Shown: piece by piece, positions 5,136 through 63,238 of the stretch
Position numbering within the stretch: position 1 is the stretch's first letter
Layout: each line of letters opens with the position of its first letter
Assembly (NCBI GenBank): GCA_037130655.1
Contig: JBAXSP010000004.1
Location: 337 to 64,336 of the forward strand
Length of the DNA stretch: 64,000 nt
Direction of reading: 5' to 3'
Source of the DNA: a bacterium
GTDB taxonomy: Bacteria > Patescibacteriota > Minisyncoccia > Phycocordibacterales > UBA9973
Position numbers and translations under genes: made by a program
The notes under the pieces: model-generated
Database searches by the model: none
Seen by the model: the letters and a program-made list of their open reading frames with translations, nothing else
What the model was told of the DNA's origin: nothing

Positions 5136-5157
5136 ATATACACAAAGTATATCACTG

Positions 5158-5258: not shown

Positions 5259-5263
5259 TATAC

Positions 5264-19322: not shown

Positions 19323-20857
19323 TTTCCGATTTTCGGTCGATATTGTAACGCCTCAAGAATATGAGCAACTTCAACAGTATCTTTGTTTTCTACATCAGCA
19401 ATAGTTCGAGCCAATTTAATCACTCGATGATATGCTCGTGGAGACAGTCCCAATTTTTCTGCACTTGTTTTTAATATGTTTTTTACTTCATCAGAAAGTT
19501 GCACAAACTGATTGAGCTCTTTTGTTGTCATTGCGCTATTCGTCATATCACTTCGCTTCAGTTGCTTAAAACGCTCGTGTTGCTTTTTGCGTGCTTGCAA
19601 TACTTTTTCACGCAACACCTCACTAGTCTCACCGCTTTTATTTGTGCTCATCAAATCATCATACGAAACATGAGGCACTGCAATCATAATATCAATACGG
19701 TCAAGTAGTGGTCCTGATAATTTTCTTTCATATCGCAAAATGTCATGTGCACCACAAATACACTCTTTGACACCGCTTCCTTTGTATCCGCACGGACACG
19801 GATTCATAGCTGCAATCAAAGAAAATCGTGAAGGAAACTGCATCGTTCCTCGTGCACGAGACACCGTCACGACACCATCTTCAAGTGGTTGCCGGAGTGC
19901 TTCGATTACTCGTTTCTCAAATTCAGGAAACTCATCCAAAAACAACACTCCTTTGTGTGCAAGTGTCACTTCACCAGGACGCGGATTAGCACCTCCACCA
20001 ATAAGTGCTACGTACGAAGAAGTATGGTGTGGAGAACGAAATGGTGGAACAAAAGAAATTCCTTCAGCCACTTGTCTACTTCCAACAATTGAATGGATAC
20101 CAATCACCTCAAGCGCTGATTCTTTTGAAAGCGGTGGCAACAATGTCGCAAACGCTTTTGCAAGCAATGTTTTTCCGGTACCAGGCGGTCCATACAAAAT
20201 AACATTATGATTTCCCGCCGCAGCAATGAGCAAGGCCCGCTTCACACTTTCTTGCCCTTGAATATCTTCAAAAGCAATATCATACATTTGAGTGTTTGAA
20301 ATAGGCACCTCTTTAATTGCAGGAAGCGTGAATTCTTTTTTATCATCAAGATGCGCAACCAAATCAGACAATGAATCGAAACCGATAATCTCAATCGCGT
20401 CTACAAGCGAAGCTTCGGTTGCATTTTCACTTGGAACATACAGTGTTTTGATTCCGGCTTTGGCACAAGAAAGTGCAATCGGAAGAACACCTTTGAGCGG
20501 ACGGACACTTCCGTCGAGTGACAGTTCGCCAATAAAAACACTATCATCAGATAGTGGTTGTAAAAACTCTTCACCGACAAGCAACGATAGTGCAATAGCC
20601 ACATCATGATAGGCGCCCTCTTTTTTCAATTCAGCCGGAGCAAGTGCGATCGTAATTTTCTTTGTACCGAATTTTTCTGGCAAGAGATTACTGTTTCGCA
20701 AAGCACTTGTCACACGATTTTTAGATTCCTCAACAGCTTTATCAGGTAATCCCACAACAGCAAAAGAATGTATTCCCCGTTCAACATCTGATTCAACGGT
20801 GACAATAGTTCCCTTGATTCCGAATGGTTGTGCTGATAGCACTCGAGCGAAACTCAT
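19313..20857 (-). CDS. YifB/ComM-family Mg-chelatase-like AAA+ ATPase
   Basis: N-terminal Lon-like domain, Walker A GPPGTGKTLLAKA, and a C-terminal Mg-chelatase domain. The start was moved to MSFARVLSA at 20857. The 24 upstream codons in the track ORF are a read-through of the repeat element. Confidence 0.85.
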   Translation of the reverse strand: MSFARVLSAQPFGIKGTIVTVESDVERGIHSFAVVGLPDKAVEESKNRVTSALRNSNLLPEKFGTKKITIALAPAELKKEGAYHDVAIALSLLVGEEFLQPLSDDSVFIGELSLDGSVRPLKGVLPIALSCAKAGIKTLYVPSENATEASLVDAIEIIGFDSLSDLVAHLDDKKEFTLPAIKEVPISNTQMYDIAFEDIQGQESVKRALLIAAAGNHNVILYGPPGTGKTLLAKAFATLLPPLSKESALEVIGIHSIVGSRQVAEGISFVPPFRSPHHTSSYVALIGGGANPRPGEVTLAHKGVLFLDEFPEFEKRVIEALRQPLEDGVVTVSRARGTMQFPSRFSLIAAMNPCPCGYKGSGVKECICGAHDILRYERKLSGPLLDRIDIMIAVPHVSYDDLMSTNKSGETSEVLREKVLQARKKQHERFKQLKRSDMTNSAMTTKELNQFVQLSDEVKNILKTSAEKLGLSPRAYHRVIKLARTIADVENKDTVEVAHILEALQYRPKIGNND

Positions 20858-20876: not shown

Positions 20877-20977
20877 TAATGACCAATTACTAATGACCAA
20901 TGACCAATGACCAATAATTCGAAAAACACGAAGCCAAAGGCTTCGTGTTTTTATTAGTCATTAGTCACTAGTCATTA
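20877..20977. repeat. Heptamer-array/terminator composite element, copy 4
   Basis: taatgaccaattactaatgaccaatgaccaatgaccaata / gaaaaacacgaagccaaaggcttcgtgttttt / attagtcattagtcactagtcatt. Confidence 0.75.
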
Positions 20978-22321: not shown

Positions 22322-22361
22322 AAATATATTATAACAAATAATAATAATTTAATTGTATTAA

Positions 22362-22468
22362 AATGACTAATTACTAGTGACCAATGACCAGTATTTTGAA
22401 AACAAAAGAGGCGAAACAGAATGTTTTGCCTCTTTATTAGTCATTAGTCACTAGTCATTGGACATTGC
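22362..22468. repeat. Heptamer-array/terminator composite element, copy 5
   Basis: aatgactaattactagtgaccaatgaccagt / aaaagaggcgaaacagaatgttttgcctcttt / attagtcattagtcactagtcattggacatt. Confidence 0.75.
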
Positions 22469-32001: not shown

Positions 32002-32040
32002 TACTATATATCAGATAAATGGTTTTGTAAAGAAAAACCC

Positions 32041-33138
32041 TCAGACAAGCTGAGGGTTGGGTTTTTTACCTAATTTTTTCAAAACTACATAATGTGAATA
32101 AAGAGCGTCCCAGAATGTAGGGAATTCGTTGTAAGGAAGATTACCTTCTTTACAAACCTGTTTTACAAATACACTGATTTCTGGATAACGATCGTGACTA
32201 ATTTTGTGTTCGAGATGGTGTTCAATTTGACGATTCAAGCCACCTGCATACCATCTCCAAAACTTACTATTTGGTGCAAAATTTGCAGTGGTCAGAATTT
32301 GATGCACCGCGTTTTCATGTGGGATAACATTGTGTTCCATTCCCAAACTTGCAGGAGTGTCAACCATATCGGTCAGATCAACGACATGTGCCAATTGAAA
32401 GACAGTGCTGATGATAAGTCCGACCGAAAAAGCAATAATTCCATATGCAACAAAAACTTCTGTCCATGAGTAACCGAAGAAGTAGTGAGGCATGAGAATA
32501 AAAATTGCAACATGTAATACTTTGCTCAACCAAAAAATGAAATGGTCTTTTATTTTGAAATTTAGTTTCGCAGGACCAACACGTCCGTTAAAATAATTTG
32601 CAAAATCTGAATACCAAATCCATGTAAGATATCCGAAGACACCGTAAACCAACCACATGTACACATGCTGGAATTTCATCCAAGGCTTCCATTTTTGTGA
32701 TGGATGAAGTCGTGCAATAAACGGAATACTAATATCAGTATCGTATCCGTGTACATTTGTGTAAGTATGGTGGACCACATTGTGTTTTATTTTCCAAATT
32801 CTGATGTTGCCACCAAGAATATTGAGCCAAAAACCCATTGCGTCATTTATCCAACCCTTTTCAGAAAAAGATTCGTGACCACCATCATGCATTAAATTGA
32901 ACCCTATTCCTGCTATAACTGCTCCGAAAAACATCAAGAGTAGTATAGAAAAAAATAGCGGCAGATTAGTTGTTGCGAGCACAAAATATGAAATAGCCCA
33001 AAGGGACATAAAAATCCATGCTTTTGTATGCAACACATGCGTTCCCGTTGATCCATATTTTTTAAGATACGGATCAACAAGTTCCTTAAGTCTTTTTTTG
33101 AACCAAGGAGAGGTTGCTTTAAATATTAATTTTTCCAT
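32041..33138 (-). CDS. Membrane fatty-acid desaturase (His-box family)
   Basis: Three histidine boxes (HDGGHESF, HNVVHHTYTN, QIEHHLEH) and multiple TM helices. Confidence 0.8.
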   Translation of the reverse strand: MEKLIFKATSPWFKKRLKELVDPYLKKYGSTGTHVLHTKAWIFMSLWAISYFVLATTNLPLFFSILLLMFFGAVIAGIGFNLMHDGGHESFSEKGWINDAMGFWLNILGGNIRIWKIKHNVVHHTYTNVHGYDTDISIPFIARLHPSQKWKPWMKFQHVYMWLVYGVFGYLTWIWYSDFANYFNGRVGPAKLNFKIKDHFIFWLSKVLHVAIFILMPHYFFGYSWTEVFVAYGIIAFSVGLIISTVFQLAHVVDLTDMVDTPASLGMEHNVIPHENAVHQILTTANFAPNSKFWRWYAGGLNRQIEHHLEHKISHDRYPEISVFVKQVCKEGNLPYNEFPTFWDALYSHYVVLKKLGKKPNPQLV

Positions 33139-35535: not shown

Positions 35536-35660
35536 ATAATGACCAATGTTCAATGACCAGTGACAAATAATTCGAATCAAAAGAGCGAAGCCGTAGGCTT
35601 CGCTCTTTATTATTTGGTGATTTTAATTAGTCATTGGTCACTAGTCATTAGACATTACTT
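35536..35660. repeat. Heptamer-array/terminator composite element, copy 6 (abuts the clpP stop codon)
   Basis: ataatgaccaatgttcaatgaccagtgacaaat / aaagagcgaagccgtaggcttcgctcttt / ttaattagtcattggtcactagtcattagacatt. Confidence 0.75.
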
Positions 35661-37470: not shown

Positions 37471-37594
37471 TAATGACTAATTACCAATGACCGATGACTA
37501 ATAATTTCGAACTAAAAAAAGCAAAACATTTCATGTTTCGCTTTTTTGGTTAATGTTGTTTTACTGGTCATTAGTCATTGGACACTAGTCATTG
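37471..37594. repeat. Heptamer-array/terminator composite element, copy 7
   Basis: taatgactaattaccaatgaccgatgactaataa / aaaaaagcaaaacatttcatgtttcgctttttt / ctggtcattagtcattggacactagtcattg. Confidence 0.75.
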
Positions 37595-38261: not shown

Positions 38262-38353
38262 AGAGTAAGTATACAACAAAGAAAAGTATAAGGAATTAGT
38301 ATAAGTATGAGGAAACAAAAGAGCGAAACCTTTCAGGTTTCGCTCTTTTGTTT

Positions 38354-40229: not shown

Positions 40230-40436
40230 ATTTTATTTTTATTTAATTTTGCTAATTTTTCTAAAAATAATGCCCGCTTTTGGCGGACATTACTATTAAT
40301 ATCTTTATATTACATAACAAAACAGGAAAACACAAGTCATTCACTTTTTATTTTTTATTGTTGTAATGATTTTTTATTTTTTCAAAAAAATGTAAAACAG
40401 GCTTTGTTTTGTAAGACTATTAACAACTTGTTCAGG

Positions 40437-40487
40437 TTATCCACAGGTTTTCAACATATTTTTTAGATTTTGGGGAGTTTATCCACA
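40437..40487 (+). promoter_or_regulatory. Two perfect DnaA boxes (TTATCCACA) upstream of dnaA
   Basis: ttatccaca at 40437-40445 and 40479-40487, within the AT-rich region preceding the dnaA start. Confidence 0.75.
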
Positions 40488-40503
40488 GAACATAAAAGCT
40501 ATA

Positions 40504-41856
40504 ATGTTTTTTATGCAAGACTACAAACAACTTTGGGATAGCTGTTTAATCGAAATAGAGTCAGGTCTTTCAAAAGCCAATTTTAATACTTGGTTTAAAA
40601 ATACATCAATAATCAAACAAGACGCCGGTACGGTATATATCGGAGTACCAAATGAATTCGTCAAAGAGTGGTTAGTAACAAGATTCAATAAATTGATACT
40701 AAAAACACTTATGAATTACACGGAAAATATCCGTGGAGTAGAATATACCATTGTAAAACAAGATCAAAACAAGAAAAATATCGAAAATAGTCCATCATAT
40801 CAGAACGCAACACTTCCGCTCGACGATTTATATGTGAACAAAGAGGATAATTTGAATCCTCGATATATTCTAGATACTTTTATTGTTGGATCATTCAACG
40901 AGTTGGCTTATGCTGCCTCTCAAGCAATTATCAAGGCACCAGGAAAGAGTTATAACCCGTTTTTTGTCTATGGAAATAGTGGTCTCGGAAAAACACACCT
41001 CATTGAGGCAATAGGGAACACTATTAAGAAGAATGATTCGAGTAAAAAGATTTACTATACAACACTTGAGCGTTTCTATATTGAGTGTGTAAATGCTATT
41101 CAAGCCAATAAAATCAATATTTTCAAGGAAAAATACCGAAAATTCGACGTGTTGATTATTGATGACGTCCAATTTATTACCGGAAAAACTCGTACACAAG
41201 ATGAATTGTTCCATGTTTTCAATACTTTGTATGACACAAACAAACAAATCGTGTTTTCATCTGATAAACACCCCAATTTCATTGCCGGCCTCGAAGATCG
41301 TTTGAAGTCACGCTTTTCTCAAGGGATGATCGTTGAAGTACTTGAACCAGAATATGAGTCTCGTATTGCCATTTTGAACGAAAAAGCAAAACAAATGAAT
41401 AAAAACATTAATCCTGAGGTAATTGAATATATTGCATCGGTGGTTGAAGGGAATATTCGTGAACTAGAGGGGACTTTGAACTCTATTATCTGCCAAAGTG
41501 ATCTTCGAAACCGCCCAGTAGACATCAACGAAGTCAAACAATTCCTCAAAAACGTTGTTCGTCCCAAAAAACAGGTAGCTGTCGAAGAAGTCGTCAAAAC
41601 AATTGCTGATTTCTACGGTATAGACGAGCAATCTATCTATGAAAAGACTCGTCGTAAGGAAATTGTCCACGCAAGACAGATGGTAATGTTTATTCTCCGT
41701 GAAGAATTCAGTGTCTCTTTCCCATTAATCGGTCAAAAACTAGGAGGGAAGGATCACACAACAGTGATTCACTCGTGTACAAAAATAAAATCAGAATTAT
41801 TACACAATCCAGTACTTGGTCAAGAGCTTGAAAAACTAAAAATCTTGTTCAGATAA
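40504..41856 (+). CDS. dnaA: Chromosomal replication initiator protein DnaA
   Basis: AAA+ core (GNSGLGKTHL), the sensor/box VII region, and a C-terminal DNA-binding domain (...HARQMVMFILREEF...LGGKDHTTV...). Confidence 0.95.
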   Translation: MFFMQDYKQLWDSCLIEIESGLSKANFNTWFKNTSIIKQDAGTVYIGVPNEFVKEWLVTRFNKLILKTLMNYTENIRGVEYTIVKQDQNKKNIENSPSYQNATLPLDDLYVNKEDNLNPRYILDTFIVGSFNELAYAASQAIIKAPGKSYNPFFVYGNSGLGKTHLIEAIGNTIKKNDSSKKIYYTTLERFYIECVNAIQANKINIFKEKYRKFDVLIIDDVQFITGKTRTQDELFHVFNTLYDTNKQIVFSSDKHPNFIAGLEDRLKSRFSQGMIVEVLEPEYESRIAILNEKAKQMNKNINPEVIEYIASVVEGNIRELEGTLNSIICQSDLRNRPVDINEVKQFLKNVVRPKKQVAVEEVVKTIADFYGIDEQSIYEKTRRKEIVHARQMVMFILREEFSVSFPLIGQKLGGKDHTTVIHSCTKIKSELLHNPVLGQELEKLKILFR

Positions 41857-43593: not shown

Positions 43594-43603
43594 AACTCTT
43601 CTC

Positions 43604-43697
43604 AGTTGTAATTTTTTAAGAACACAGATATTTTTCTGGTGAAAAATTCCTTTGCTCGCCTACCCGGCTGCGCAAGTTTCTTAAAAAATTACAACTC
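43604..43697. mobile_element. MITE-like element, TTTTTCACCAGAAAAA-core family (copy B)
   Basis: 19-bp TIR agttgtaattttttaagaa / ttcttaaaaaattacaact. The core (rc) is gcgcagccgggtaggcgagcaaaggaaTTTTTCACCAGAAAAAta. Confidence 0.55.
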
Positions 43698-44131
43698 TAA
43701 AATATTTTGAAAAAATAAAAACTTCCGAATATCGGAAGTTTTTATTATAGAAAAAAGCTCGAATCTCCAAACAATCCTTGTGTTAATAAAAAAACAAGTA
43801 GTCAGATTGCAAAGGATAGCCCCAGCAGACGGTAAACCGTAACCAAGACGTCCTCTTTAAAATAACTTGAGCGTAAGCCGATTGCTTAGAGATTTGAGCC
43901 TTCTTTTGATATACTAGAAAAAATAGTATATACCATATTTTTAACCTGAAAACAGTTTAACATATTATACTTTTTTTGTCAACTACCTTGTTATAAAATC
44001 GTTATATATCAAATAAATGTAAGGATTTTCAGATGTAGATGAAATTCGATGAAAAAATGAGTATTCGAGCGAGATGTATAAATTATACATTGAGTGAGAA
44101 ACGGAATTTTTGAAGAAGAAGTTCGCTACAT

Positions 44132-45785: not shown

Positions 45786-46025
45786 ATGACATACAACGAC
45801 GATACAGATAATCTTTATTGGGAAGATGACTTTGATGGTTCAACAAAGGGGCTTCATGATGAAAACGATGACGATCCATACACGGGTCATTTTGGTTTTA
45901 GTGTAAAAGATGGTGATGATGATGCTGATGTAGAAACAGCTCTTCCGTTGGAAGATGACGAACCGCTTATTGATGAAGACCTTGCTGGTCTTGCAGGAGA
46001 AAAAGAAGAAGAGGAAGCAGAGTAA
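45786..46025 (+). CDS. Small highly acidic hypothetical protein
   Basis: 79 aa with about 40% Asp/Glu. Confidence 0.35.
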   Translation: MTYNDDTDNLYWEDDFDGSTKGLHDENDDDPYTGHFGFSVKDGDDDADVETALPLEDDEPLIDEDLAGLAGEKEEEEAE

Positions 46026-46124
46026 TGTCTAATGACTAGTTACTAATGATCAATAATAAAACAACGAAGCCTATGGCTTCGTTGTTTTATGTTCGAAATA
46101 CTAGTCACTACTCATTAGTCATTA
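46023..46124. repeat. Heptamer-array/terminator composite element, copy 8
   Basis: taatgtctaatgactagttactaatgatcaataa / aaaacaacgaagcctatggcttcgttgtttt / atactagtcactactcattagtcatt. Confidence 0.7.
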
Positions 46125-49890: not shown

Positions 49891-50000
49891 TAGTGACCAG
49901 TTACTAATGACCGATGACCAATAACAAAAAAGTGACAACCAAGAGTTGTCACTTTTTTTATTCGAAACTATTGGTCACTAGTCATTGGTAATTAGTCATT
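49891..50000. repeat. Heptamer-array/terminator composite element, copy 9 (between the convergent tyrS and PilB-like genes)
   Basis: tagtgaccagttactaatgaccgatgaccaata / aaaaaagtgacaaccaagagttgtcacttttttt / ctattggtcactagtcattggtaattagtcatt. Confidence 0.75.
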
Positions 50001-50006
50001 ATCTCT

Positions 50007-51710
50007 CTAATCTTCATCGAAATCTACAACCTCCACTGCTTCCTCATATGTTGTCACACCATTCAAGATTTTCACCACTGCGTCTTCTTTCATATCAAGA
50101 ATGTGTTGTGTTTCAGATGCTTTTTTGATTTCTCGTTCACTTGGGTTTTTGTTTACGATATCTTCAATTGATTGGTCTGTGAGTATTGCTTCGAACACAC
50201 CGATTCGTCCTTTGTATCCAGTTCCGCTACATTTTTCACAACCAACCGCTTGTTTGACTTTCATATCCATATCAGCTGATACATTATATGAAGCCATATC
50301 TTTTCCTTCTGCAATCGCCTGTGTGATAATCGCGCTGAATATGTTCTTTTCATTTTCGTTTGCGTCACGATCTGTCGCACAGTATTTACAAACTTTTCTG
50401 ATCAACCGTTGTGCTACTGAAATAGTGAGAGCAGAAGTGAGGATTTTTGGATTGATACCAAGGTCAATCAAGCGGGGAATAACACCTGCGGCATTGTTGG
50501 TGTGGAGTGTTGAGAACACCAAGTGACCAGTAAGTGCTGCGTTGATTGCAATTGTTGCTGTGTCTTTGTCTCGGATTTCTCCCACCATGATTACGTCAGG
50601 GTCTTGTCTTAGTGCTGCACGAAGTCCTTCAGGGAAACCGTAGCCTTTGTCGATTTCAGTTTGAGTTTGAGTGATACCTGCGAGGTGATATTCAATCGGG
50701 TCTTCAATAGTAAGAATTTTTAACTCAGGATCATAGATGCGACGAAGGAATGAATAGAGGGTGGTTGTTTTTCCAGATCCTGTTGGTCCGGTGATCAACA
50801 TCAATCCATTTGGTTTTTTGATTTCGTGATCCAGAATCTTAAAGAGTTTTGGTTCGATTCCCAGGTCTTCGAATTTTACTTTCGTTGCTTTTGGGTTGAG
50901 TAGACGCATAACAATTCCTTCGCCGTATGCAGATGGAATGATTGATGTACGAATACCAATTTCATCTCCGCTAATAAAAATACTAAAACGTCCATCCTGT
51001 GCTTGGTCTGTTTGAGTAAGTTTCAATCCTGAGATCAATTTGATACGAGAGTCGATCATTCTGAACTTTGCTTCATCAAAGAATGCTACATCTTGCAACA
51101 CTCCGTCGAGACGATACCGTAAACGAATTCGTTCATGCTCTGGTTCGATGTGAATATCAGACGCATCAATCGAAATTGCTCCAGCGAGAATAATTTCAAG
51201 CATGCGAGAAGTTTTCTTTTGAGAGCCGTCAGAAATAATTTGTTCAATGATTTTTCTAATATCATCAATTGTTTTAATCTGTGTCCCGAGTGCAAGGAGA
51301 GTGTCTCCGGTGATGTCGATACCACCTTCTCGAGAAACAGTGGTGTTTGAAAGTTCGCGATAGCGTTCCCAAACTTTTGTGAGACTGGCGATTGATGCCA
51401 TATAGATATGAGGAACATATCCTTTTTTGATGAGGTTTGCTGTCAGTAATGCAACATCGGTGTGAGCAGGAGAGTGTAGTGCGATGTGCAGATTGTTCCC
51501 GGCTAGTTTGAACGGAGCAACTTCCATATCATGTGCGTCTTTTTCGTCGAAGGCTCGCAATGCTTCGTTTTCAATAACCACTCCAGCAAGGTTGATATAT
51601 GGAATATTGTATTTTTCGGTCGCCAACATTTCTACCAAACCCTCTTCTTCTTGTTTTCGTAGTTCGTCAACGCGTTTGTTTTGTGATTTGTCATCAAAAG
51701 AAATACTCAT
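50007..51710 (-). CDS. Type IV pilus assembly / type II secretion ATPase (PilB/GspE family)
   Basis: Walker A LITGPTGSGKTTTL, Asp and His boxes, and a C-terminal tetra-Cys motif (CKYCATD...CEKCSGTGYKGR). Confidence 0.9.
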   Translation of the reverse strand: MSISFDDKSQNKRVDELRKQEEEGLVEMLATEKYNIPYINLAGVVIENEALRAFDEKDAHDMEVAPFKLAGNNLHIALHSPAHTDVALLTANLIKKGYVPHIYMASIASLTKVWERYRELSNTTVSREGGIDITGDTLLALGTQIKTIDDIRKIIEQIISDGSQKKTSRMLEIILAGAISIDASDIHIEPEHERIRLRYRLDGVLQDVAFFDEAKFRMIDSRIKLISGLKLTQTDQAQDGRFSIFISGDEIGIRTSIIPSAYGEGIVMRLLNPKATKVKFEDLGIEPKLFKILDHEIKKPNGLMLITGPTGSGKTTTLYSFLRRIYDPELKILTIEDPIEYHLAGITQTQTEIDKGYGFPEGLRAALRQDPDVIMVGEIRDKDTATIAINAALTGHLVFSTLHTNNAAGVIPRLIDLGINPKILTSALTISVAQRLIRKVCKYCATDRDANENEKNIFSAIITQAIAEGKDMASYNVSADMDMKVKQAVGCEKCSGTGYKGRIGVFEAILTDQSIEDIVNKNPSEREIKKASETQHILDMKEDAVVKILNGVTTYEEAVEVVDFDED

Positions 51711-51734: not shown

Positions 51735-51772
51735 AAGCAATGACCAATGACTAGTGACTAATGACTAATAAA
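51735..51772. repeat. Solo heptamer array (half element) upstream of the PilB-like gene
   Basis: gcaatgaccaatgactagtgactaatgactaataaaa with no partner arm or GC hairpin. It is followed by an AT-rich stretch and MITE copy C. Confidence 0.55.
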
Positions 51773-51862
51773 ATTTAAATTATAAAAAATAAATAATTAT
51801 TTTTTATAAAAATATATAAACTATTATTTAAAATAATTGCAATTTTTTTTCATGGAATGAAG

Positions 51863-51955
51863 GTGTGTTTTTCAGTAGACTCTGCGCAGACTGACGAGTC
51901 GAGCAAAGTAATTTTTCACCAGAAAAATATACGTGTCTACTGAAAAACAGCACCT
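51863..51955. mobile_element. MITE-like element, TTTTTCACCAGAAAAA-core family (copy C), flanked by an 8-bp direct duplication
   Basis: TIR gtgtgtttttcagtagac / gtctactgaaaaacagcac. Core gcgcagactgacgagtcgagcaaagtaaTTTTTCACCAGAAAAAta. Flanking direct repeats gaatgaag at 51855-51862 and 51956-51963. Confidence 0.6.
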
Positions 51956-52022
51956 GAATGAAGACTTGACAAACATATTGTATTGTGATACAATCTTGTT
52001 AGAAATCAAATAATATACAAAA

Positions 52023-53342
52023 TTGAAACAGTACATTTTAAACATCAAAAAAGTCCTTTTTACGGCAATCATTGTTTTGGTTGTGTCAGCAAAAGGCTAC
52101 ACAAAAAATTCTAACGATACTACTTGGCATCATTTGCCATATAGTAAAAATCCAACCACTCAAAAAACCGGAGCAGAAATTGCGGAGGGGATTGAGAATG
52201 GAACACTTGAACTGAACATGAGTATTGATGAGTTTGTAATTCAAAAAACAAACATTATCAACATTTATTGCAAACGCGACAAATGGAAAGATGCTCAAGG
52301 AAATCTGGTGGCCCCATACAAAGCCTCGAGGCAATTCATTGCTTCAATGTATCGGAACGCAAAACTGCAAACCGCAAGTTGGCAGTCCGACCAAGCATTG
52401 GTTTTTAGATTAACAACCGGAAGTATTGGTTCTGGGAAAAAAGAGAAAGTAGTCATAAAATATTTTGACTACTGGAACAGAAATCCTTACCAAAACGAAG
52501 GAATGTTTACAATTAGCCCAAGTGCTTTGTCCGATGTTGTTGGTAATTATCCAGATATTAATTTGGGTAGCAACCAGTGTTTGAATGATATTTTTATCAA
52601 ACAAATACAACAGCAACCAATCGCTCAGACTCCTGCTCCTTGCACAACATGTAATCAGCAGGTACAGCAACAGGTGTACCAGCAACCACAACAACAGCCA
52701 TGCAACAATTGCCAACAAGTGCAATGTCAGGGTGGATGTAACACGTGGAGCGGTATTCCTGTTAGAGTTCCGGCGATCTACACAGATCAGTACACAAGTC
52801 CGTGGTGGAACTTCAATGGCTATCCTCCAAACGTTAACTGTAACTACGGTTACGGAAACATGGGGTATGCACAACAAGGTTGTGGGTATTGCGGTGTTGT
52901 TGGTTGTAATGGTGGTTGTTATGGAAGAGGGAGAAATCCTTATCCGTATATGATTGCAGGACAATTAATCAGTGCTGGAACAATGCTCGGTTTGGCTTAT
53001 TTTAGCCAACCGCAACAAACCATTTTGGTTCAAAACTACAATACAACGACTTCAAATGGTGGAACGTCTCAGACGTGGACACCGACCAATAACGGGAGCG
53101 GTATTGTTGTTACCCCTGGGGGGAGCACATCAGCACTTAATTGGGGCACTGGAAACAGTAACAGTGGTGGAACAAACCAAACAAACACAGGTCTTAACTG
53201 GGGAACCGGAAACAGTTTCGGTGGTGGAACAAACCAAACAAACACGAACTTTAACACAGGAACTGGAAACAGTTTTAATGGAGGGGGTTCGTCAAATTGG
53301 GGAGGAACATCTTATGTTATTCCTGCTCAATGGTTGCGTTAA
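52023..53342 (+). CDS. Secreted Cys- and Gln/Asn/Gly-rich hypothetical protein with internal tandem repeats
   Basis: 439 aa with a signal peptide. A QQ/C-rich middle region, and the C-terminus has ~19-aa tandem repeats (NWGTGNS.GGTNQTNT). Confidence 0.5.
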   Translation: MKQYILNIKKVLFTAIIVLVVSAKGYTKNSNDTTWHHLPYSKNPTTQKTGAEIAEGIENGTLELNMSIDEFVIQKTNIINIYCKRDKWKDAQGNLVAPYKASRQFIASMYRNAKLQTASWQSDQALVFRLTTGSIGSGKKEKVVIKYFDYWNRNPYQNEGMFTISPSALSDVVGNYPDINLGSNQCLNDIFIKQIQQQPIAQTPAPCTTCNQQVQQQVYQQPQQQPCNNCQQVQCQGGCNTWSGIPVRVPAIYTDQYTSPWWNFNGYPPNVNCNYGYGNMGYAQQGCGYCGVVGCNGGCYGRGRNPYPYMIAGQLISAGTMLGLAYFSQPQQTILVQNYNTTTSNGGTSQTWTPTNNGSGIVVTPGGSTSALNWGTGNSNSGGTNQTNTGLNWGTGNSFGGGTNQTNTNFNTGTGNSFNGGGSSNWGGTSYVIPAQWLR

Positions 53343-53468: not shown

Positions 53469-55298
53469 ATGAATAAAACAATACAAAAAATAATCAAACT
53501 GGTATCGTTTTCTGCGCTCGCACTTTTTGCTAGTGCAACTTTTGCGTCTGCTACACAGTTTCCAACTGTGTCAGTGATGAATGCAACAAACAATCCAGGG
53601 TGTAATTTTGCACAATGTGGATCATCTTCAGTTTCTGCAAACCCTGGAGATATTATCTCTGTGCAAATCTTTTACAATAACACAACAGCAAGTGCACAAA
53701 ATGTGACACTTAGTCTTTCTCCTCGTACACAAACAGGAACAACTTTTTCTTTCACTGGATCTGCAAGTAATGCAGGAAGTGGAACAGTAAGTGTGACTGT
53801 TTCAGGAGGACAATCACAAACAGCAACATTGATGTCTGGTACTGCTCGTTGGTACAAAGATATTCCAACAAATAACCAACTCGTAAACGGTGTGTCTGTT
53901 GACTCACTCTTTGCTGGAAGTTTTTCAGTTGGAACACTAGCTCCGGTACAAGGTAATGCTTCTCCGAACCAAGGTGTGCTTGTTGTCGATTTCCAAATTT
54001 CAAACAATCAATATCAACCACAAACATACGCATGTAATGATGGGATTGATAATGATGGGGATGGATACCGAGACTATCCAAGCGATAGTGGTTGTACAAG
54101 TGCAACTGATAACGATGAATACAATACTCCAATCAATACTATTATTTGGGGATGTATGGATTATCGTGCAACGAATTACAATGCAAGTGCAACTCGTGAT
54201 AACGGAAACTGTACTTATGTAAACAACAACACAACAACATATGTGTGGGGTTGTACAAACTCAAGTGCATACAACTATGATTATCGTGCAAACCGTGATG
54301 ATGGTTCTTGCCGATATAACAACAATAATAACTCCACAAACAACCAAAGCCCAACTGTTGCTACAACAATGGCTACAAACATTTCAACGAGTGCTGCCCG
54401 ACTAAATGGTATTGCGTATGCAAACAACAATAATACAAACGTATGGTTCGAATGGGGTCAAACAACTTCATACGGAAATCGTACAAACACTGTTTCAATT
54501 GGAACAGCAAATGGACAAGCAATGTCTGATTCTATTTATGGATTGCAAGCTGGTACTATTTATTACTACCGAGCAGTTGCTCAAAATAATTTCGGTACTG
54601 TGTACGGTGAACGCGTATGGTTCCGAACAACTGGTGATGGTGTGGTAGATTCTACAAACACAACGACTACAAAAATCGTATACATTCACGATAGTTCAAA
54701 AACAGTCAATTTGATTCCTGCACAAACAGTGCCATCATTGATTGCACTTCGTATTGAAAACAAATTTGATTCTGTGTGTACTGGAGATAATCTTGAATAC
54801 ACCGTAACGTATCAAAACGTTTCGGGAAAAACAATTTCAAACGTAGTACTACAAGTAGTACTACCAGGCGGAGTTAGTTTTGTAAGATCATCAAATGGTT
54901 CATTTGATAAAGATTCAAACACACTCACTATCCCACTTGGAACACTTACTCCAAACCAAACTGGAACTGCGTATGTATCTGCTCACATTGATACAATTGC
55001 AAGTGATACTGATATCGTAGTTACAACTGCGCGTATGGTATACACTCACCCAGTAAGTGGTGCACAAGAAGATGTGATTGCATATGATATCAATCATAAA
55101 GGTGCATGTAGTTCAATTGGACTCGGTGCTGCAGCATTGTTTGGAAATGGATTTTTCCCAACAACATTCTTCGGATGGTTGCTATTGATTCTTGTAATCT
55201 TGATTCTTGTATTGATTGCTCGCAATCTCTATGATCGCAAAAGACTAACTAATACAAAAACAAGTAGTAGTACAAACACAACAACTTTGTCGCAGTAA
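53469..55298 (+). CDS. Cell-surface hypothetical protein with Ig/Fn3-like and DUF11-like segments, an IDNDGDG Ca-binding-like motif, and a C-terminal TM anchor
   Basis: 609 aa with a signal peptide. CNDGIDNDGDGYRDYPSDSGC; a tandem Cys-containing ~30-aa repeat; an Fn3-like WFEWGQTTSYGNRT...YYYRAVAQNNFGTVYGERVWFRT; C-terminal LLLILVILILVLIA. Confidence 0.5.
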   Translation: MNKTIQKIIKLVSFSALALFASATFASATQFPTVSVMNATNNPGCNFAQCGSSSVSANPGDIISVQIFYNNTTASAQNVTLSLSPRTQTGTTFSFTGSASNAGSGTVSVTVSGGQSQTATLMSGTARWYKDIPTNNQLVNGVSVDSLFAGSFSVGTLAPVQGNASPNQGVLVVDFQISNNQYQPQTYACNDGIDNDGDGYRDYPSDSGCTSATDNDEYNTPINTIIWGCMDYRATNYNASATRDNGNCTYVNNNTTTYVWGCTNSSAYNYDYRANRDDGSCRYNNNNNSTNNQSPTVATTMATNISTSAARLNGIAYANNNNTNVWFEWGQTTSYGNRTNTVSIGTANGQAMSDSIYGLQAGTIYYYRAVAQNNFGTVYGERVWFRTTGDGVVDSTNTTTTKIVYIHDSSKTVNLIPAQTVPSLIALRIENKFDSVCTGDNLEYTVTYQNVSGKTISNVVLQVVLPGGVSFVRSSNGSFDKDSNTLTIPLGTLTPNQTGTAYVSAHIDTIASDTDIVVTTARMVYTHPVSGAQEDVIAYDINHKGACSSIGLGAAALFGNGFFPTTFFGWLLLILVILILVLIARNLYDRKRLTNTKTSSSTNTTTLSQ

Positions 55299-55299: not shown

Positions 55300-55368
55300 C
55301 GACTAGCTCCTAGCATCTAGCTACTAGCTAAAAAAAGAACAGCGACCTTTGGTCGCTGTTCTTTTTTT
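55300..55368. repeat. Variant heptamer-array/terminator element (CTAGC-type arm)
   Basis: gactagctcctagcatctagctactagcta, then the hairpin aaaaaaagaacagcgacctttggtcgctgttcttttttt. The right arm is absent. Confidence 0.55.
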
Positions 55369-55406
55369 GGTGGAACTTGATTGTCTTTTTGTGTTACAGT
55401 GTCCAT

Positions 55407-55871
55407 ATGGAAAAAGACAAAAAGTTCGAATTGGTGACACTCACTGACACTGCACAACTTGCAGTAGAGATTGTTTCATTGATCTCGGAAAACATGAAGC
55501 ACAGTGATGTTGGTGCACAAGTAGTACTCCTTTCTGGTACACTCGGCACCGGCAAGACAACCCTTTCACAAGCAATCGCAAAAGAACTTGGTGTTACCGA
55601 AACTGTTATCTCACCAACTTTTATTCTTATGAAACGATACGAAAGTCAAAATGATTTGATAAAAAATTTGGTGCACATTGATGCATATCGTCTCGAGAAC
55701 AAAGAAGAAATGAGCAGGTTGGAATGGGAAGCATTGATCAATCAAAACAATACACTCATCTTGCTTGAATGGCCAGAAAAAGTTTCAGGCATTCTGTTAC
55801 CAGAGAAAACGATCACTGTTTCACTGGTCCATGAAAGCGAAGGACGAAGACGTGCAACAATTTCATTTTAA
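55407..55871 (+). CDS. tsaE: tRNA threonylcarbamoyladenosine biosynthesis protein TsaE
   Basis: LSGTLGTGKTTLSQAIAKELGV, SPTFILMKRYE, HIDAYRLE. Confidence 0.8.
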   Translation: MEKDKKFELVTLTDTAQLAVEIVSLISENMKHSDVGAQVVLLSGTLGTGKTTLSQAIAKELGVTETVISPTFILMKRYESQNDLIKNLVHIDAYRLENKEEMSRLEWEALINQNNTLILLEWPEKVSGILLPEKTITVSLVHESEGRRRATISF

Positions 55872-55889
55872 AAAAATTTTTCAAAGCGT

Positions 55890-58259
55890 ATGGCAAAAAA
55901 ACTAACGGACAAAAATAAAAAGACACTCGTATTACTTGATGCTCATGCAATCATTCACCGTGCATATCACGCACTACCAGAATTTGCGACACGTGCCGGA
56001 GTTCCGACAGGCGCACTCTATGGTATCATTGCAATGGTGCTCAAAATCACCGAAGAGTTACAACCAGATTATATTGTTGCGTGTTACGATCTTCCGCAAA
56101 AAACATTTCGCCATGAAGCGTATGACGCCTACAAAGGTACTCGTGCAAAAACTGATGATGCACTCGTTTCGCAAATAATACAATCACGAGAAATTTTCGA
56201 CGCATTAAATATTCCAATGTATGATGCACCAGGTTTTGAGGCCGATGATGTGCTCGGTGCAATTGCAGAGCAAACAAAAAATGATGACACGTTGAATGTG
56301 ATCATTGCGTCAGGTGATATGGACACACTTCAATTGGTTGAAGGAAACCGTGTGCAAGTGTACACCTTGAAAAAAGGTTTGAACGATACCATTATTTATA
56401 ATGAAAAAGCGGTGGTGGAAAGATTCGGATTTTTGCCAATTCAAATTCCAGATTACAAAGGATTGCGCGGTGATACATCTGACAACATTATTGGAGTCAA
56501 AGGTATCGGAGAAAAAACTGCAACAAGTTTGATTCTTGCATATAAGACAATCGAACAACTATTTGTCGCAATTAAAAAGGACAGAGACAGTGTCAAGAAA
56601 AAAGCAAGTGTCACTGATCGCATCATTGACCTATTGATTGAAAATGAAGAAGAAGCATTGTTCTCAAAAACACTCGCAACAATTCGTCGCGATGTGCCAA
56701 TTACTTTTGTACTTCCAGAAGAATTCAAAAAAAATGCAGAACGAGAAAAATTGATTGCACTCTGTCAGAAATTTGAATTCCGAAGCTTGATTACACGTAT
56801 CGAAAAAGTTTTTGGTTTTGATCCAATCAAAGATGAAATCGAAATCAAAGGCGATGATATTTTTTTGGTGAAGAAATTGAGCATCGCAACGTCGCTACTC
56901 AATTCAGAAGACAAAGAACCAGACATCGGCGCGATTTTATTTCACACAAAAACAACAACGATTGCAGATGCAGAAAAAGTATTGATGCAAGATATCAAGA
57001 AAAATAATTTGGAATTTGTTTTTGATGTAATTGAAACTCCACTCATTCCGATTATTTCTGAGCTCGAAGAAAATGGTATTTTGATTGATGTAGAATATTT
57101 GAAAAAGTTGAGCAAAGAATATCACACAGCGCTCGATATTTTGGAAAAGAAAATTTACGAACTAACTGGTGAGACATTCAATATCAATTCACCAAAACAA
57201 CTAGCAGAAATTTTGTACGACAAGTTGGAACTTTCGGATGGAATCAAAATGAAAAAAACTGCCGGTGGTGCACGTTCAACAAAAGAATCCGAACTGCTTA
57301 AAATGAAAGACGCACATCCAGTCATTTCATTTATTCTTGAATACCGCGAATTACAAAAATTACTTTCGACCTACATCGACACCTTGCCGAGTTTGGTGAA
57401 AGAAGACGGAAGAATTCATGCACACTTTTTGCAGACAGGAACCACGACCGGACGCTTTGGTTGTGAAAATCCAAACCTGCAAAATATTCCAATCAAGACA
57501 GAATTAGGAAAACGAATTCGAAATGGTTTTGTTGCAAGCAAGGGTTGTACATTGGTTTCGTTCGACTATTCACAAATCGAACTTCGGGTAGCGGCAATGC
57601 TTGCAGGCGATACGTATATGACCGAAGCGTTTATTCGAGGTGATGACATTCACACAGCAGTGGCAATGAAAGTCTTTGGGGTAAGTGAAGCAGATATGAC
57701 TTATGATATGCGACGTCGAGCAAAAGTCATCAACTTCGGTATTCTCTATGGTATGGGGGTGACCGCACTCAAAGATGCACTAGGAACCGACCGTAAAGAA
57801 GCCCAAGCTTTCTACGACAACTATTTCTTGGCCTTTCCTTCGATTGCGGGATATTTGGAAGGAATTAAGGAATTTGCTAAAAAGCACGGATTTACGACAA
57901 CATTGTATGGACGACGACGTTATTTCCCAAATATTAAATCAAGTATCCAGTTTATCCGAGCAATGGCTGAGCGAACTGCGATCAATGCACCAATCCAAGG
58001 AACAGGGGCGGATATTATGAAATTGGGAATGATTAAGGCTCAAACAGAGCTTGCGAAGGCTGGTTTGAATGAAAAAGCCAAAATGGTGCTTCAGGTGCAC
58101 GATGAAATCATTTATGAAGTAGAACATAGTGCAGTAGAACAAGTAACGAAAATTGTTAGTAATGCGCTGGTGACAGCAATGCCGGATGAACCAAAGCCAA
58201 CAATCACAGTCCCTCTTGCTGTAGGAGTAAAACAAGGAGAAAATTGGGGTGTATTATAG
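55890..58259 (+). CDS. polA: DNA polymerase I (5'-3' exonuclease + polymerase domains; reduced 3'-5' exonuclease region)
   Basis: N-terminal 5'-nuclease (LVLLDAHAIIHRAYHAL), polymerase motifs A (DYSQIELR), B (RRRAKVINFGILYG) and C (QVHDEIIYE). 789 aa. Confidence 0.9.
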   Translation: MAKKLTDKNKKTLVLLDAHAIIHRAYHALPEFATRAGVPTGALYGIIAMVLKITEELQPDYIVACYDLPQKTFRHEAYDAYKGTRAKTDDALVSQIIQSREIFDALNIPMYDAPGFEADDVLGAIAEQTKNDDTLNVIIASGDMDTLQLVEGNRVQVYTLKKGLNDTIIYNEKAVVERFGFLPIQIPDYKGLRGDTSDNIIGVKGIGEKTATSLILAYKTIEQLFVAIKKDRDSVKKKASVTDRIIDLLIENEEEALFSKTLATIRRDVPITFVLPEEFKKNAEREKLIALCQKFEFRSLITRIEKVFGFDPIKDEIEIKGDDIFLVKKLSIATSLLNSEDKEPDIGAILFHTKTTTIADAEKVLMQDIKKNNLEFVFDVIETPLIPIISELEENGILIDVEYLKKLSKEYHTALDILEKKIYELTGETFNINSPKQLAEILYDKLELSDGIKMKKTAGGARSTKESELLKMKDAHPVISFILEYRELQKLLSTYIDTLPSLVKEDGRIHAHFLQTGTTTGRFGCENPNLQNIPIKTELGKRIRNGFVASKGCTLVSFDYSQIELRVAAMLAGDTYMTEAFIRGDDIHTAVAMKVFGVSEADMTYDMRRRAKVINFGILYGMGVTALKDALGTDRKEAQAFYDNYFLAFPSIAGYLEGIKEFAKKHGFTTTLYGRRRYFPNIKSSIQFIRAMAERTAINAPIQGTGADIMKLGMIKAQTELAKAGLNEKAKMVLQVHDEIIYEVEHSAVEQVTKIVSNALVTAMPDEPKPTITVPLAVGVKQGENWGVL

Positions 58260-58372
58260 GTTCTAGTGATTAGTTTCTAGTTGCTAGTAAAAACATAGAA
58301 AAAAGAGCGAAAACCTACGGTTTTCGCTCTTTTTTTGTTAAAACTAGAACCTAGTCACTAGCCACTAGAACC
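58258..58372. repeat. Variant heptamer-array/terminator element (CTAGT / ACTAGAA-type arms)
   Basis: ggttctagtgattagtttctagttgctagta / aaaaaagagcgaaaacctacggttttcgctcttttttt / aaaactagaacctagtcactagccactagaacc. Confidence 0.65.
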
Positions 58373-58394
58373 TATCACTTGCTATACTCTCTCT

Positions 58395-58877
58395 ATGGAA
58401 CCAACTCAGAAGAAACCAAAAAGCGTACATATCATTTTATCAGAATCATATTTGACCTTTATTGTCCTCTTTATTCCAGCAATGTTGTTGGATACTTATT
58501 TTAATACCAATAAAACCGTGCATCCAAATCTTGTTATTTTGGGTTGGGTACTACTATTTATCTCACCGGTTCTTATTTATTGGGCACAAAAAACCTCAGC
58601 TGCTTTCAAAAAAGCTTATGAAAATGGTACTCCGATTACTCCGAGCTTCTTTATGCACGGGCCATACAGGGTTACTCGTCGTCCAACTCATCTTGGTATT
58701 ACACTGATGTTTGTTGGATTTTCTCTTGTTATATCAAGTCCGTTTGCGCTAGTTTCTGCATTGATTGCACACTTGGTGACACAAATGAATTTCATTAAAC
58801 GCGAAGAATGTATTTTGCTTGAAAAATACGGCGAACCATATCAGGTTTACTGTAATAAAGTTGGCAAATGGCTATGA
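58395..58877 (+). CDS. Isoprenylcysteine carboxyl methyltransferase (ICMT/PEMT) family membrane protein
   Basis: GPYRVTRRPTHLGITLMFVGF ... EECILLEKYGEPYQVY matches the ICMT-family C-terminal signature. Four TM helices. Confidence 0.6.
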   Translation: MEPTQKKPKSVHIILSESYLTFIVLFIPAMLLDTYFNTNKTVHPNLVILGWVLLFISPVLIYWAQKTSAAFKKAYENGTPITPSFFMHGPYRVTRRPTHLGITLMFVGFSLVISSPFALVSALIAHLVTQMNFIKREECILLEKYGEPYQVYCNKVGKWL

Positions 58878-59582: not shown

Positions 59583-59614
59583 AAAAAAAGCCTTCTGTGG
59601 GAGAAGGCTTTTTG
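59583..59614 (+). terminator. Intrinsic terminator after the 58868..59563 gene
   Basis: aaaaaaagccttctgtgggagaaggctttttg. Confidence 0.65.
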
Positions 59615-59820
59615 TATGGTTATATTTTATTGTAGGCTTGAAAAGCAGAAAGAACAAATGAGGTGAAAGTTGCGTAATAATTAACTTAATTATATGAAAA
59701 GGGAGCAAGTCCATTTTTTATTGGCAAGAGCCAAAAGTTTGACTGTCGCTTTCTATATGTGCCTCATCTGATATAAGTATACAAGTTTTTTATTTTGTGT
59801 GTTGTGGAAAACTTTTTAAT

Positions 59821-61947: not shown

Positions 61948-61979
61948 ATAAACAAAACCAGCTATATAGCTGGTTTTGT

Positions 61980-62192
61980 TTATTTTTCTAGTGTTGTATT
62001 TCCACTAATCAGATCAAAAATTTTATTTTCTATATTGAAAAGTTCTGTCTGCATATTTTTTAATATAGTATATTTTTCTCCACTAAAATCCTCGATGTTT
62101 TTAGTTTTTAAAAATTCTTCAATATATCCATCATATTCTTCATTCAATTTTTTCCAACTTGTTTTGATTTGATCAAATTCTTCCTTTTTCAT
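61980..62192 (-). CDS. Small hypothetical protein
   Basis: 70 aa ORF preceding the repeat-rich region. Confidence 0.3.
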   Translation of the reverse strand: MKKEEFDQIKTSWKKLNEEYDGYIEEFLKTKNIEDFSGEKYTILKNMQTELFNIENKIFDLISGNTTLEK

Positions 62193-63115: not shown

Positions 63116-63127
63116 TCCTATTCCGCA

Positions 63128-63238
63128 AATGACCAGTGTCCCAGTGACTAATGACCAATAAAACTGAACAAAAAAAGAAATCTTTTTGGGATTTCTTTTT
63201 TTAAATATTAGTCACTAGTCATTGGTAATTAGTCATTA
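63128..63238. repeat. Heptamer-array/terminator composite element, copy 13
   Basis: aatgaccagtgtcccagtgactaatgaccaata / aaaaaagaaatctttttgggatttcttttttt / attagtcactagtcattggtaattagtcatt. Confidence 0.75.

Follow-up and report, generated by a model that had tools for sequence, protein, structure and literature searches.

Period-seven arms beside intrinsic terminators in a Patescibacteria-type genome: a possible modular cassette of gene-end punctuation

Short arrays of tandem heptamers, here called arms, adjoin terminator hairpins in many intergenic regions of a 64,000-nucleotide stretch of DNA from a bacterium of the Patescibacteriota (GenBank assembly GCA_037130655.1, contig JBAXSP010000004.1, positions 337 to 64,336; the whole of this stretch is called the window). 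Most copies are built from one class of heptamer and form what we call the main family, but copies near positions 5156, 55300 and 58258 use others. These variant copies raise the question of what is held constant in so short an element while the heptamer itself changes, and whether variant and main-family copies are one kind of thing. The answer developed below, which we hold tentatively, is that they are one kind: a lineage-specific, modular, copy-and-paste, bidirectional "punctuation" cassette that joins stop codons in all frames to a terminator and is made of heptamers resembling the STRR repeats of cyanobacteria. The host genome is small, of Patescibacteria type and 38% G+C; homologues of its polA, Mg-chelatase-like ATPase and PilB genes (55-61% identity) carry the names Paceibacteria, Parcubacteria or Nomurabacteria.

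Results

Anatomy and periodicity of the arms

Arms of four to five tandem non-standard heptamers adjoin an intrinsic terminator at 55301-55333 (unit CTAGCTN), 58257-58374 (TAGKKNC) and 5156-5189 (AGTTGWT), as listed in Table 1. At the first of these, gactagctcctagcatctagctactagcta occupies 55301-55330, beginning 2 nt 3' of the TAA stop of open reading frame (ORF) 53469-55298; the arm has a lag-7 identity of 0.77, contains five stops that close three of three frames, and is followed in turn by an A-tract, a hairpin with a 14-bp stem (55334-55364) and a T-run. At the second, the opening TAG of the left arm is the stop codon of polA. This arm (ttctagtgattagtttctagttgctagta at 58261-58289) has five units, the fifth being TAGTAAA, with a lag-7 identity of 0.68 (P=2e-4) and seven stops in three of three frames. 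It is followed by the hairpin at 58298-58336 and then by aactagaacctagtcactagccactagaacc at 58342-58372, which on the other strand reads as four full units and then TAGTT, forms 27 pairs with the left arm on folding, and ends about 20 nt 5' of a leaderless start at 58395.

The variant strings were quoted earlier in a sequence-only reading of this DNA and stand where it had placed them. That reading described the copy near 5158 as variant on one arm, and indeed only the left arm there is (AGTTGWT)n, the right arm being of a degenerate main type. The arm-hairpin-arm layout that it gave to the variants in general holds at 58258 and fails at 55300, where there is a left arm and no inverted arm 3' of the hairpin. 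Its view that the 7-nt period and a TAG/TAGT core are kept across variants is borne out, and holds as well for (TAGTAGT)n, another variant, which the sister-lineage contig L252 has at its e46025 locus. Autocorrelation and a position weight matrix, both of which it had proposed, support the periodicity: in four variant arms lag-7 identity is 0.68-0.78 and identity at all other lags is at most 0.44, and in a shuffle test the maximum over lags 2-12 reaches the observed identity with P<=2e-4.

Across the window, the pattern TAGN4TAGN4TAG has 18 matches where 0.11 are expected, and TGACN3TGACN3TGAC, with at most one mismatch, has 30 where 0.40 are expected. Tandem Repeats Finder reports period-7 arrays at 13 loci, including every copy of the elements, and every array is intergenic or overlaps a stop codon only. 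With 78 occurrences where base composition predicts 221, the tetramer CTAG is depleted about three-fold in the window, yet one third of all CTAGs lie within arms, which make up 1.3% of the bases.

Ten main-family elements occur in the window, with the layout (YARTGAC)4-5, YAATAA, terminator hairpin and then the reverse complement, (GTCAYTR)4-5. The consensus from 74 units is T/C, A (97%), A/G (A in 76%), T (100%), G (86%), A (88%), C (95%); the T at position 4 is present in 74 of 74 units, giving TAAT or TAGT. Arms come in two types, A (TAATGAC YAATTAC YAATGAC CRRTGAC YAATAATTCGAA) and B (YAATGAC TAGTGTC YAATGAC TAATGAC YAATAAA). Co-directional gene pairs, of which there are five, always have the B arm beside the stop codon of the incoming gene and the A arm beside the promoter downstream. 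Identity between copies reaches 79% over 95 nt.

Stop codons and orientation

Two features are common to the five heptamer types, namely the count of four to five units and the place between a stop codon and a hairpin, and nearly every unit of all five (YARTGAC, TAGKKNC, CTAGCTN, AGTTGWT and the TAGTAGT of L252) contains a stop. The main unit amounts to two adjacent stop-type codons plus one base (TAR-TGA-C), and the frame moves by one with each repeat. Read towards the hairpin, every one of the 24 arms has stops in all three frames, on average 6.5 per 35 nt. For comparison, control 35-nt flanks 3' of the stop codons of genes without arms have all frames closed in 1 of 39 cases (mean 1.7 stops), and the opposite strand of the arms does so in 11 of 24 (mean about 3). 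The TGAC strand of every main-family arm is directed at the hairpin. Arms begin 0-6 nt 3' of a stop codon or include that stop, the first heptamer supplying the stop codon of five genes; the C-terminus of the protein from ORF 19313-20857 (..GNND*) is encoded by an arm, while that of its relative ends ..GE*. Folded alone, main-family arms are unstructured (0 to -5 kcal/mol).

Terminator hairpins

By consensus scan and folding, the hairpins are terminator-like, with stems of 13-20 pairs, energies of -12 to -29 kcal/mol and flanking A- and T-tracts. They have the predicted form of intrinsic terminators, a G+C-rich stem-loop with a T-run and, if bidirectional, an A-tract 5' of it. The central hairpins mostly differ between copies, except for a sub-family with GAGCGAAGCC/CGAAGCC.

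Hairpin families recur at non-orthologous loci, armed or arm-less, in the window and in sister strains, so the terminator stems themselves seem to be copied around. One such family, GAGCGAA[A/G]CC ... GG[T/C]TTCGCTC, is found in the window at 35580-35608, 58298-58336 and 38313-38353, and also at the e49890 locus of L251 and L252. An arm-less terminator at 61950-61985, 3' of a Zip-family gene, is represented by an unrelated hairpin in L122 (6800-6830) and L123 (7210-7240), and the terminator at 59585-59615 is orthologous in sister strains, with two compensatory pair changes.

Pairing between arms

The two arms of an element are imperfect inverted repeats, 57-79% complementary. Whole elements fold with 21-30 arm-arm pairs and a minimum free energy of -36 to -59 kcal/mol, compared with -21 to -35 kcal/mol when the arms are shuffled; the predicted pairs arise because both arms copy one motif. 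In the main family, left-right complementarity has a mean of 0.73 within elements and 0.76 between elements (Mann-Whitney P=0.89). The heptamer is altered on both arms jointly only in the 58258 element and in the variant of L252, and pairing energy has no bias to the transcribed strand.

Constraint and turnover in relatives

Eight element loci were compared with contigs of three sister lineages whose proteins are 92-95% identical to those of the window. Divergence at four-fold degenerate sites is 37-42% in polA, PEMT and PilB and about 50% in TyrRS. Against this background the arms of e58258 differ from those of L123 at 2 of 73 positions, one per arm, where four-fold sites differ at 39% (binomial P=2e-13). 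The hairpin between them has changed by about 15-20%, including one compensatory pair (G-C to A-T). The TyrRS-side arm of e49890 is orthologous in L251 and L252, with 2 changes in 28 positions and exactly one heptamer indel (P=1.7e-4), having five units in the window and four in the relatives. The hairpin and other arm of e49890 are not orthologous, and since the TyrRS-side arm stands alone in the relatives, an arm must be constrained by itself. Orthologous arms are under purifying selection and change at about one tenth of the neutral rate.

Turnover of the family is equally plain. A whole element is found in any relative at one of the eight loci only (e58258, in L123), and one arm remains at e49890. 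At the other six loci, relatives carry either a plain terminator or a different heptamer, or lack an array, while intergenic DNA nearby is 93-100% identical. The three loci e19222, e20878 and e22362 have plain, unrelated terminators in L244; the 55300 array is missing from L122 and L123, and the 58258 element from L122; the e46025 locus has (TAGTAGT/TAAGTAG)n arms around a different hairpin in L252 and no arms in L251. Comparison of filled with empty sites shows a resident terminator replaced rather than inserted into, and the 10-nt flanks contain no target-site duplications. From absence or replacement at six of eight loci it follows that the family is quickly gained, lost and shuffled, without target-site duplications. 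Hairpins relocate separately from arms: that of e35626 occurs in relatives at the e49890 locus, and that of e49890 resembles an arm-less terminator at the e46025 locus of L251. Arms are far more numerous in the window than in relatives over the same regions, and some 80 kb from more distant relatives (proteins 55-61% identical) is essentially free of arrays. A lone array, (TTAGAWA)4, again with TAG at period 7, lies at 18319-18349 of L246, a contig from a relative with about 59% protein identity, just 5' of rpsT in a divergent intergenic region.

These comparisons revise what the sequence-only reading had proposed about selection. Its claim survives for the arms themselves (the 58258 arms above all), the period and the core, but not for complementarity between arms: the covariation that it suggested looking for is absent from the main family, the arms of e5156 are unpaired (0.44), and single arms exist and are conserved. 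Its further statement that the pattern does not fit recent transposition was too strong, given an element kept whole in a relative at one locus in eight.

Occurrence in other taxa

An exact-pattern scan with TGACYARTGACYARTGAC gave matches mostly in genomes of Nostocales and Oscillatoriales. The main unit class also occurs in Bacteroidota, Planctomycetota and Acidobacteriota, in metagenome contigs of 32-66% G+C, and in at least 120 viral contigs, some of 41-74% G+C. Because arrays in other genomes are mostly solitary, often long and of either polarity, the inward-pointing, stop-flush, terminator-centred cassette is a peculiarity of this lineage, shared with a few look-alikes from metagenomes (e.g. 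L221, L228, L210). The orientation rule was not found in other taxa, where the ratio of sense to antisense arrays 3' of genes was 23:40 in a cyanobacteria-dominated set and 34:27 in metagenomes, and pairs of both polarities occur. A literature search by sequence word returned eukaryotic AP-1 sites only.

Feature coordinates and setting

Table 1. Arms and hairpins of the variant and main-family elements, in window coordinates
Feature	Positions	Strand	Description
e55300 variant arm	55301-55333	+	GA CTAGCTC CTAGCAT CTAGCTA CTAGCTA AAA; single, without inverted partner
e55300 intrinsic terminator	55334-55368	+	AAAGAACAGCGACC-TTT-GGTCGCTGTTCTTT + T-run; -21.5 kcal/mol
e58258 variant left arm	58257-58292	+	TAGGTTC TAGTGAT TAGTTTC TAGTTGC TAGTAAAA
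e58258 bidirectional terminator hairpin (predicted)	58298-58336	.	A-tract, GAGCGAAAACC-TAC-GGTTTTCGCTC, T-tract; -23.4 kcal/mol
e58258 variant right arm	58338-58374	-	- strand: TAGGTTC TAGTGGC TAGTGAC TAGGTTC TAGTTTTAA; lag-7 identity 0.71
e5156 variant left arm	5156-5189	+	(AGTTGWT)4-5; lag-7 identity 0.78; not complementary to right arm (0.44)
e5156 terminator hairpin	5192-5232	.	-28.9 kcal/mol
e5156 right arm, degenerate main type	5233-5263	-	abuts TAA stop of ORF 5264-7540
e376 main family	376-485	.	type A arm 376-409, hairpin 410-440, type B arm 451-485
e19222 main family	19223-19322	.	between convergent genes; right arm = last codons + stop of ORF 19313-20857 (..NND*)
e20878 main family	20877-20977	.	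arms 20877-20918 and 20950-20977, hairpin 20925-20949; absent in L244
e22362 main family	22361-22467	.	absent in L244
e35626 main family	35536-35657	.	hairpin GAGCGAAGCC-GTA-GGCTTCGCTC, found also at another locus in sister strains
e37471 main family	37471-37594	.	-
e46025 main family	46023-46124	.	between convergent genes
e49890 main family	49891-50001	.	TyrRS and PilB-like ATPase genes, convergent
e51736 solitary main-type arm	51738-51772	+	28 nt upstream of start of ORF 50007-51710; then A/T-only hairpin; arm absent in L251 and L252
e63128 main family	63127-63238	.	flipped: type B arm left, type A right

Among the 51 window ORFs of at least 100 aa, 37 end in TAA, 12 in TAG and 2 in TGA. One TGA stop (58875-58877) overlaps the following gene and the other (32041-32043) sits within a terminator hairpin (32036-32058). 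Many genes look leaderless, because the distance between an extended -10 box (TGnTATAAT-like, e.g. TGCTATACT at 58380-58388), which stops 6-7 nt 5' of the start codon, and that codon leaves no space for a Shine-Dalgarno sequence; examples are the starts at 356, 20857, 22321, 55407 and 58395. The box is kept in sister strains, also where the upstream arm is missing. A role for the arms as the -35 element of these promoters was considered and rejected: matches are weak (TTAGTA), and the promoter is intact in the arm-less L122.

A second dispersed repeat, of about 100 nt and with ATATTTTTCTGGTGAAAAATTMCTTTGCTCG...CTGCGCA in common, occurs at 43594-43720 and 51855-51975 (reverse strand). In sister strains the PilB-like gene and the terminator are separated by another, long palindrome, of 130 nt and -76 kcal/mol (L251 5050-5180). 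At 53135-53275, within ORF 52023-53342, whose protein has no Pfam match, a 57-nt unit is repeated 2.5 times (82% matches). The probable replication origin is at about 40.2-40.5 kb (40230-40503), where the gene strand switches and cumulative GC skew has its minimum (about 40 kb); 5' of dnaA (40504-41856) there are two DnaA boxes TTATCCACA, at 40437 and 40479, and directly 3' of it is TGTGGATAA, at 41867. Over the whole window TTAA is strongly depleted (200 observed, 595 expected from base composition), while GATC and TCGA are near expectation; the depletion of TTAA and CTAG could come from restriction-modification pressure. In Rfam searches only tRNAs passed a gathering threshold, and a permissive search of the elements gave sub-threshold matches to generic long hairpins, so identity with a known RNA family is ruled out at Rfam thresholds.

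Discussion

The density of stops, their inward orientation and their contact with gene ends suggest a common design for arms that differ in sequence, a unit of [TAR or CAR][TGA or NNN] plus one nucleotide, realised as YARTGAC in the main family and as TAG-NNN-N in the variants. We infer that each arm acts as a barrier to ribosomes. An entrant from its side would meet five to eight stops over three frames in the roughly 35 unstructured nucleotides that separate the gene's stop codon from the hairpin, so that a ribosome that has passed the stop codon or shifted frame would be released before it melts the terminator hairpin or reaches the 3' end of the RNA, and a terminating ribosome would be held about 35 nt off the stem. 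RNA polymerase, from whichever direction it came, would be halted by the hairpin and the A- and T-tracts beside it. The inverted second arm would then be the other half of a symmetric cassette, usable in any gene context, and on read-through it would add a stem of 26-29 bp. Arm length may change by 7-nt slippage, and arms and hairpins may be copied or exchanged between terminators through recombination or template switching at palindromes; such copying would account for how fast elements come and go and for the swapping of hairpins.

Several observations weigh against this reading. For 8 of the 24 arms (the distal arms of co-directional pairs, and e51736) no ORF comes in from the stop-rich direction. 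In main-family units the loss of TAR is not offset by TGA, or the reverse (Fisher P=1), and 6 of 74 units have no stop at all. TGA is rare as a stop here (2 of 51 genes), and UGAC terminates translation weakly in E. coli. Since units of 4 nt could place stops in all frames within a shorter array, a stop role leaves the choice of seven unexplained. Constraint on e58258 spans nearly every base and not the TAGs alone, and one of its two arm changes abolishes a TAG. In other phyla, heptamers of the main unit class lie 3' of genes in either orientation. Finally, of the terminators in the window about 12 have arms, and about 15 of equal strength are bare; because of the latter, and because close relatives are mostly without arms, the arms must be an optional, dispensable accessory. 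The arms that face no ORF, the arm-less half of the terminators and most relatives, the near-complete constraint at 58258, the rarity of TGA and the greater compactness of period 4 are the reasons why we put forward the functional reading as a possibility rather than as a probable conclusion.

The strongest rival is a protein that reads the heptads. Arms would be arrays of sites for an oligomerising protein, one subunit or dimer per heptad, bound either on double-stranded DNA (as by the ribbon-helix-helix, RHH, protein omega/ParB of pSM19035) or in the 3' untranslated region of RNA (as by HutP or TRAP), and modulating termination, mRNA decay or DNA organisation. Five of the seven unit positions are near-invariant, and positions 1 and 3 toggle as Y and R, in the manner of a recognition motif; arms have four to five contiguous units; single orthologous arms are conserved; and the spread of the heptamer class over many phyla and over viral contigs of 41-74% G+C is hard to explain without some shared recognition or property. 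HutP binds RNA at three UAG triplets with exactly 7-nt spacing beside a terminator, and sites for HutP and TRAP lie in the hut and trp attenuators of Bacillus. The arms resemble these in having a repeated triplet core beside a terminator, and the variant arms fit the TAG-N4 pattern of HutP, but those are single leaders 5' of genes whereas the arms are a genome-wide 3' feature whose main core is YAR-TGAC. The omega protein of pSM19035 (ParB, RHH) binds 7-bp heptads 5'-WATCACW-3', direct and inverted, and needs at least four contiguous ones (PMC9499535). The four to five units per arm would suffice for this, and the unit differs from WATCACW at one or two of seven positions; the inverted omega unit AGTGATT is one base off AGTGACT and occurs literally in the left arm of 58258. 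Omega, though, serves a few promoter sites of one plasmid and is a known protein, and here there are dozens of chromosomal gene-end sites and several unrelated heptamers. A single protein is unlikely to read the four or five different heptamers found in one slot, beyond the TAG core. Nor would it predict strict inward orientation and flush contact with stops, most arms are missing from close relatives of presumably equal proteome, and the approximately 50 proteins of the 64-kb window include no RHH, HutP, TRAP or cold-shock protein. On balance we consider this explanation unlikely, if less so than those that follow.

Alternatively, the elements may be selfish or neutral palindromic repeats, of the kind of repetitive extragenic palindromic sequences and bacterial interspersed mosaic elements (REP/BIME) or of miniature inverted-repeat transposable elements (MITEs), copied between terminators and tolerated without a host function, their stop-rich ends and terminator letting insertions at gene 3' ends survive. 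Much of the turnover described above fits this: presence/absence or replacement at seven of eight loci among strains with 92-95% identical proteins, arms far commoner in the window than in relatives and almost none in some 80 kb of distant relatives, hairpin sub-families at non-orthologous loci, and copies up to 79% identical over 95 nt. The existence of position-specific subtypes, A and B, implies that the copies share an ancestor. These genomes also contain a second family of palindromic repeats, and one gene has had its C-terminus rewritten by an arm. Yet the orthologous arms have diverged by 3-7% where neutral sites have diverged by 39-50%, though neutral decay would be expected of a static orthologous copy, and the constrained 58258 variant is unique, so that no donor copy exists for gene conversion. 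The resident terminator is replaced and not added to, most central hairpins differ, target-site duplications are absent, and there is no transposase or RAYT among the approximately 50 window proteins. These points make a purely selfish or neutral origin doubtful.

Constraint on pairing between the arms, as the sequence-only reading supposed, would make each element a hairpin of about 50 bp that stabilises RNA 3' ends, offers an RNase III site on read-through or extrudes as a DNA cruciform. The 21-30 arm-arm pairs and the energy gained over shuffled arms agree with this, as do the joint changes of heptamer on both arms at 58258 and in L252 (which palindrome-templated copying could also produce) and the fact that both substitutions at 58258 are neutral for pairing in plus-strand RNA (one turns A-U into G.U, the other falls on a T.T mismatch). 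With covariation absent from the main family, arms unpaired at e5156, single arms conserved (e55300, e51736 and the TyrRS arm in L251 and L252), and no preference for the transcribed strand, where an efficient terminator would in any case leave the distal arm untranscribed, selected pairing is improbable and disfavoured as an explanation. Also disfavoured, and the least credible of all, is an origin of the arrays as by-products of replication slippage next to hairpins, without selection on their sequence. In its favour, heptamers are reported to be the commonest long simple-sequence repeats of prokaryotes and have been ascribed to slippage of the polymerase (Mrazek 2007, cited in PMC4679880 and PMC4692102), the TyrRS arm differs by one unit, and the last two units of e55300 are identical. 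Against it, the orthologous arms are strongly conserved, subtypes are position-specific, inward orientation is fixed, unit number is limited to four or five, and independent variants share the TAG core.

Returning to the punctuation cassette, its stop arrays might have a wider meaning. YARTGAC and TAG-N4 arrays would be portable all-frame translational stops which, combined with a hairpin, give full bidirectional punctuation, spread from terminator to terminator and are carried between bacteria and phages. This extension is rather improbable, but if true it would give a functional reason for the dominance of heptamers among the long simple-sequence repeats of prokaryotes and for the persistence of an A/T-rich unit in genomes and viral contigs with as much as 74% G+C. 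Whatever reading is preferred, heptanucleotide repeats have been known since 1990 (STRR) and are reportedly the commonest long simple-sequence repeats of prokaryotes. The window offers an unusually clean setting, with fixed unit number, orientation and stop contact, strong constraint and cassette-like exchange, in which hypotheses can be tested in a small genome. That terminators turn over as modules in reduced genomes bears on the annotation and comparison of Patescibacteria and on the design of compact synthetic insulators.

Relation to known systems

Three well-known classes of short dispersed repeat were compared with the elements. In Enterobacteria and Pseudomonas, REP/BIME sequences number in the hundreds, as short repeats outside genes that follow gene 3' ends, form inverted pairs and vary in presence between strains; they affect mRNA 3'-end stability, termination and translation near stops. 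A REP unit is, however, palindromic with a conserved GTAG head, and should self-fold as an imperfect palindrome, whereas the arms are non-palindromic tandem heptamers, scarcely folding alone, and the hairpin is the variable part; REP systems also have a RAYT (Y1 HUH) transposase, of which the approximately 50 window proteins include none. In Neisseria, inverted pairs of DNA uptake sequences (DUS) and Correia elements are lineage-specific short repeats that form or flank intergenic terminators. With DUS it is the repeats that pair into the stem, and they abound within genes too and are common to related species. Here, by contrast, counts of TGAC outside the arms (199 and 230 on the two strands) are near the 221 expected, and the arms are missing from relatives. 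A classical MITE would share terminal inverted repeats with these elements, but the variable interior, replacement of the resident terminator and lack of target-site duplications do not agree with one. Because the defining features of these families failed, the arms are not REP, MITE or DUS.

Heptanucleotide repeats offer a closer comparison. The STRR heptanucleotides of cyanobacteria are likewise dispersed, intergenic, tandem 7-nt units, and the class TGACCAA / TGACTAA (= TTGGTCA / TTAGTCA) fills loci of Nostoc, Anabaena, Microcoleus and Scytonema. TTGGTCA is the unit of the cyanobacterial STRR2 family, with which the arm unit probably agrees. Differences from STRR lie in the short arrays (four to five units), the inverted, inward-pointing pairs around a separate G+C-rich hairpin, the flush contact with stop codons, the position-specific subtypes and the host, which is of Patescibacteria type and not a cyanobacterium. 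The STRR work (Mazel 1990) is cited in PMC4692102, itself a study of the heptamers GGGNATC and GGGGAYT in Xanthomonas and Nostoc, where four units are preferred, arrays are enriched within 50 bp of stop codons, some form inverted pairs between convergent genes, and length and sequence vary among close relatives (Rehm 2015, PMC4692102). Those repeats are G-rich and form G-quadruplexes, while the arms here are A/T-rich and stop-rich and have no G-runs. Direct repeats of TAACTGA are found in marine Beggiatoaceae, cyanobacteria and Bacteroidetes, with a patchy phylogenetic spread, in sets of two to six copies whose forward orientation has stops in all frames, and RNA-binding proteins have been proposed as their readers (MacGregor 2015, PMC4679880). 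They share with the arms an intergenic heptamer containing TAA and TGA and stops in all frames; they differ in the unit, in lying just 5' of start codons rather than between stop and terminator, and in being almost never inverted (one indirect repeat). The arms are accordingly grouped with the cyanobacterial STRR heptamers and with the heptanucleotide simple-sequence repeats described by Mrazek, MacGregor and Rehm, as a stop-flush, terminator-centred form of that group.

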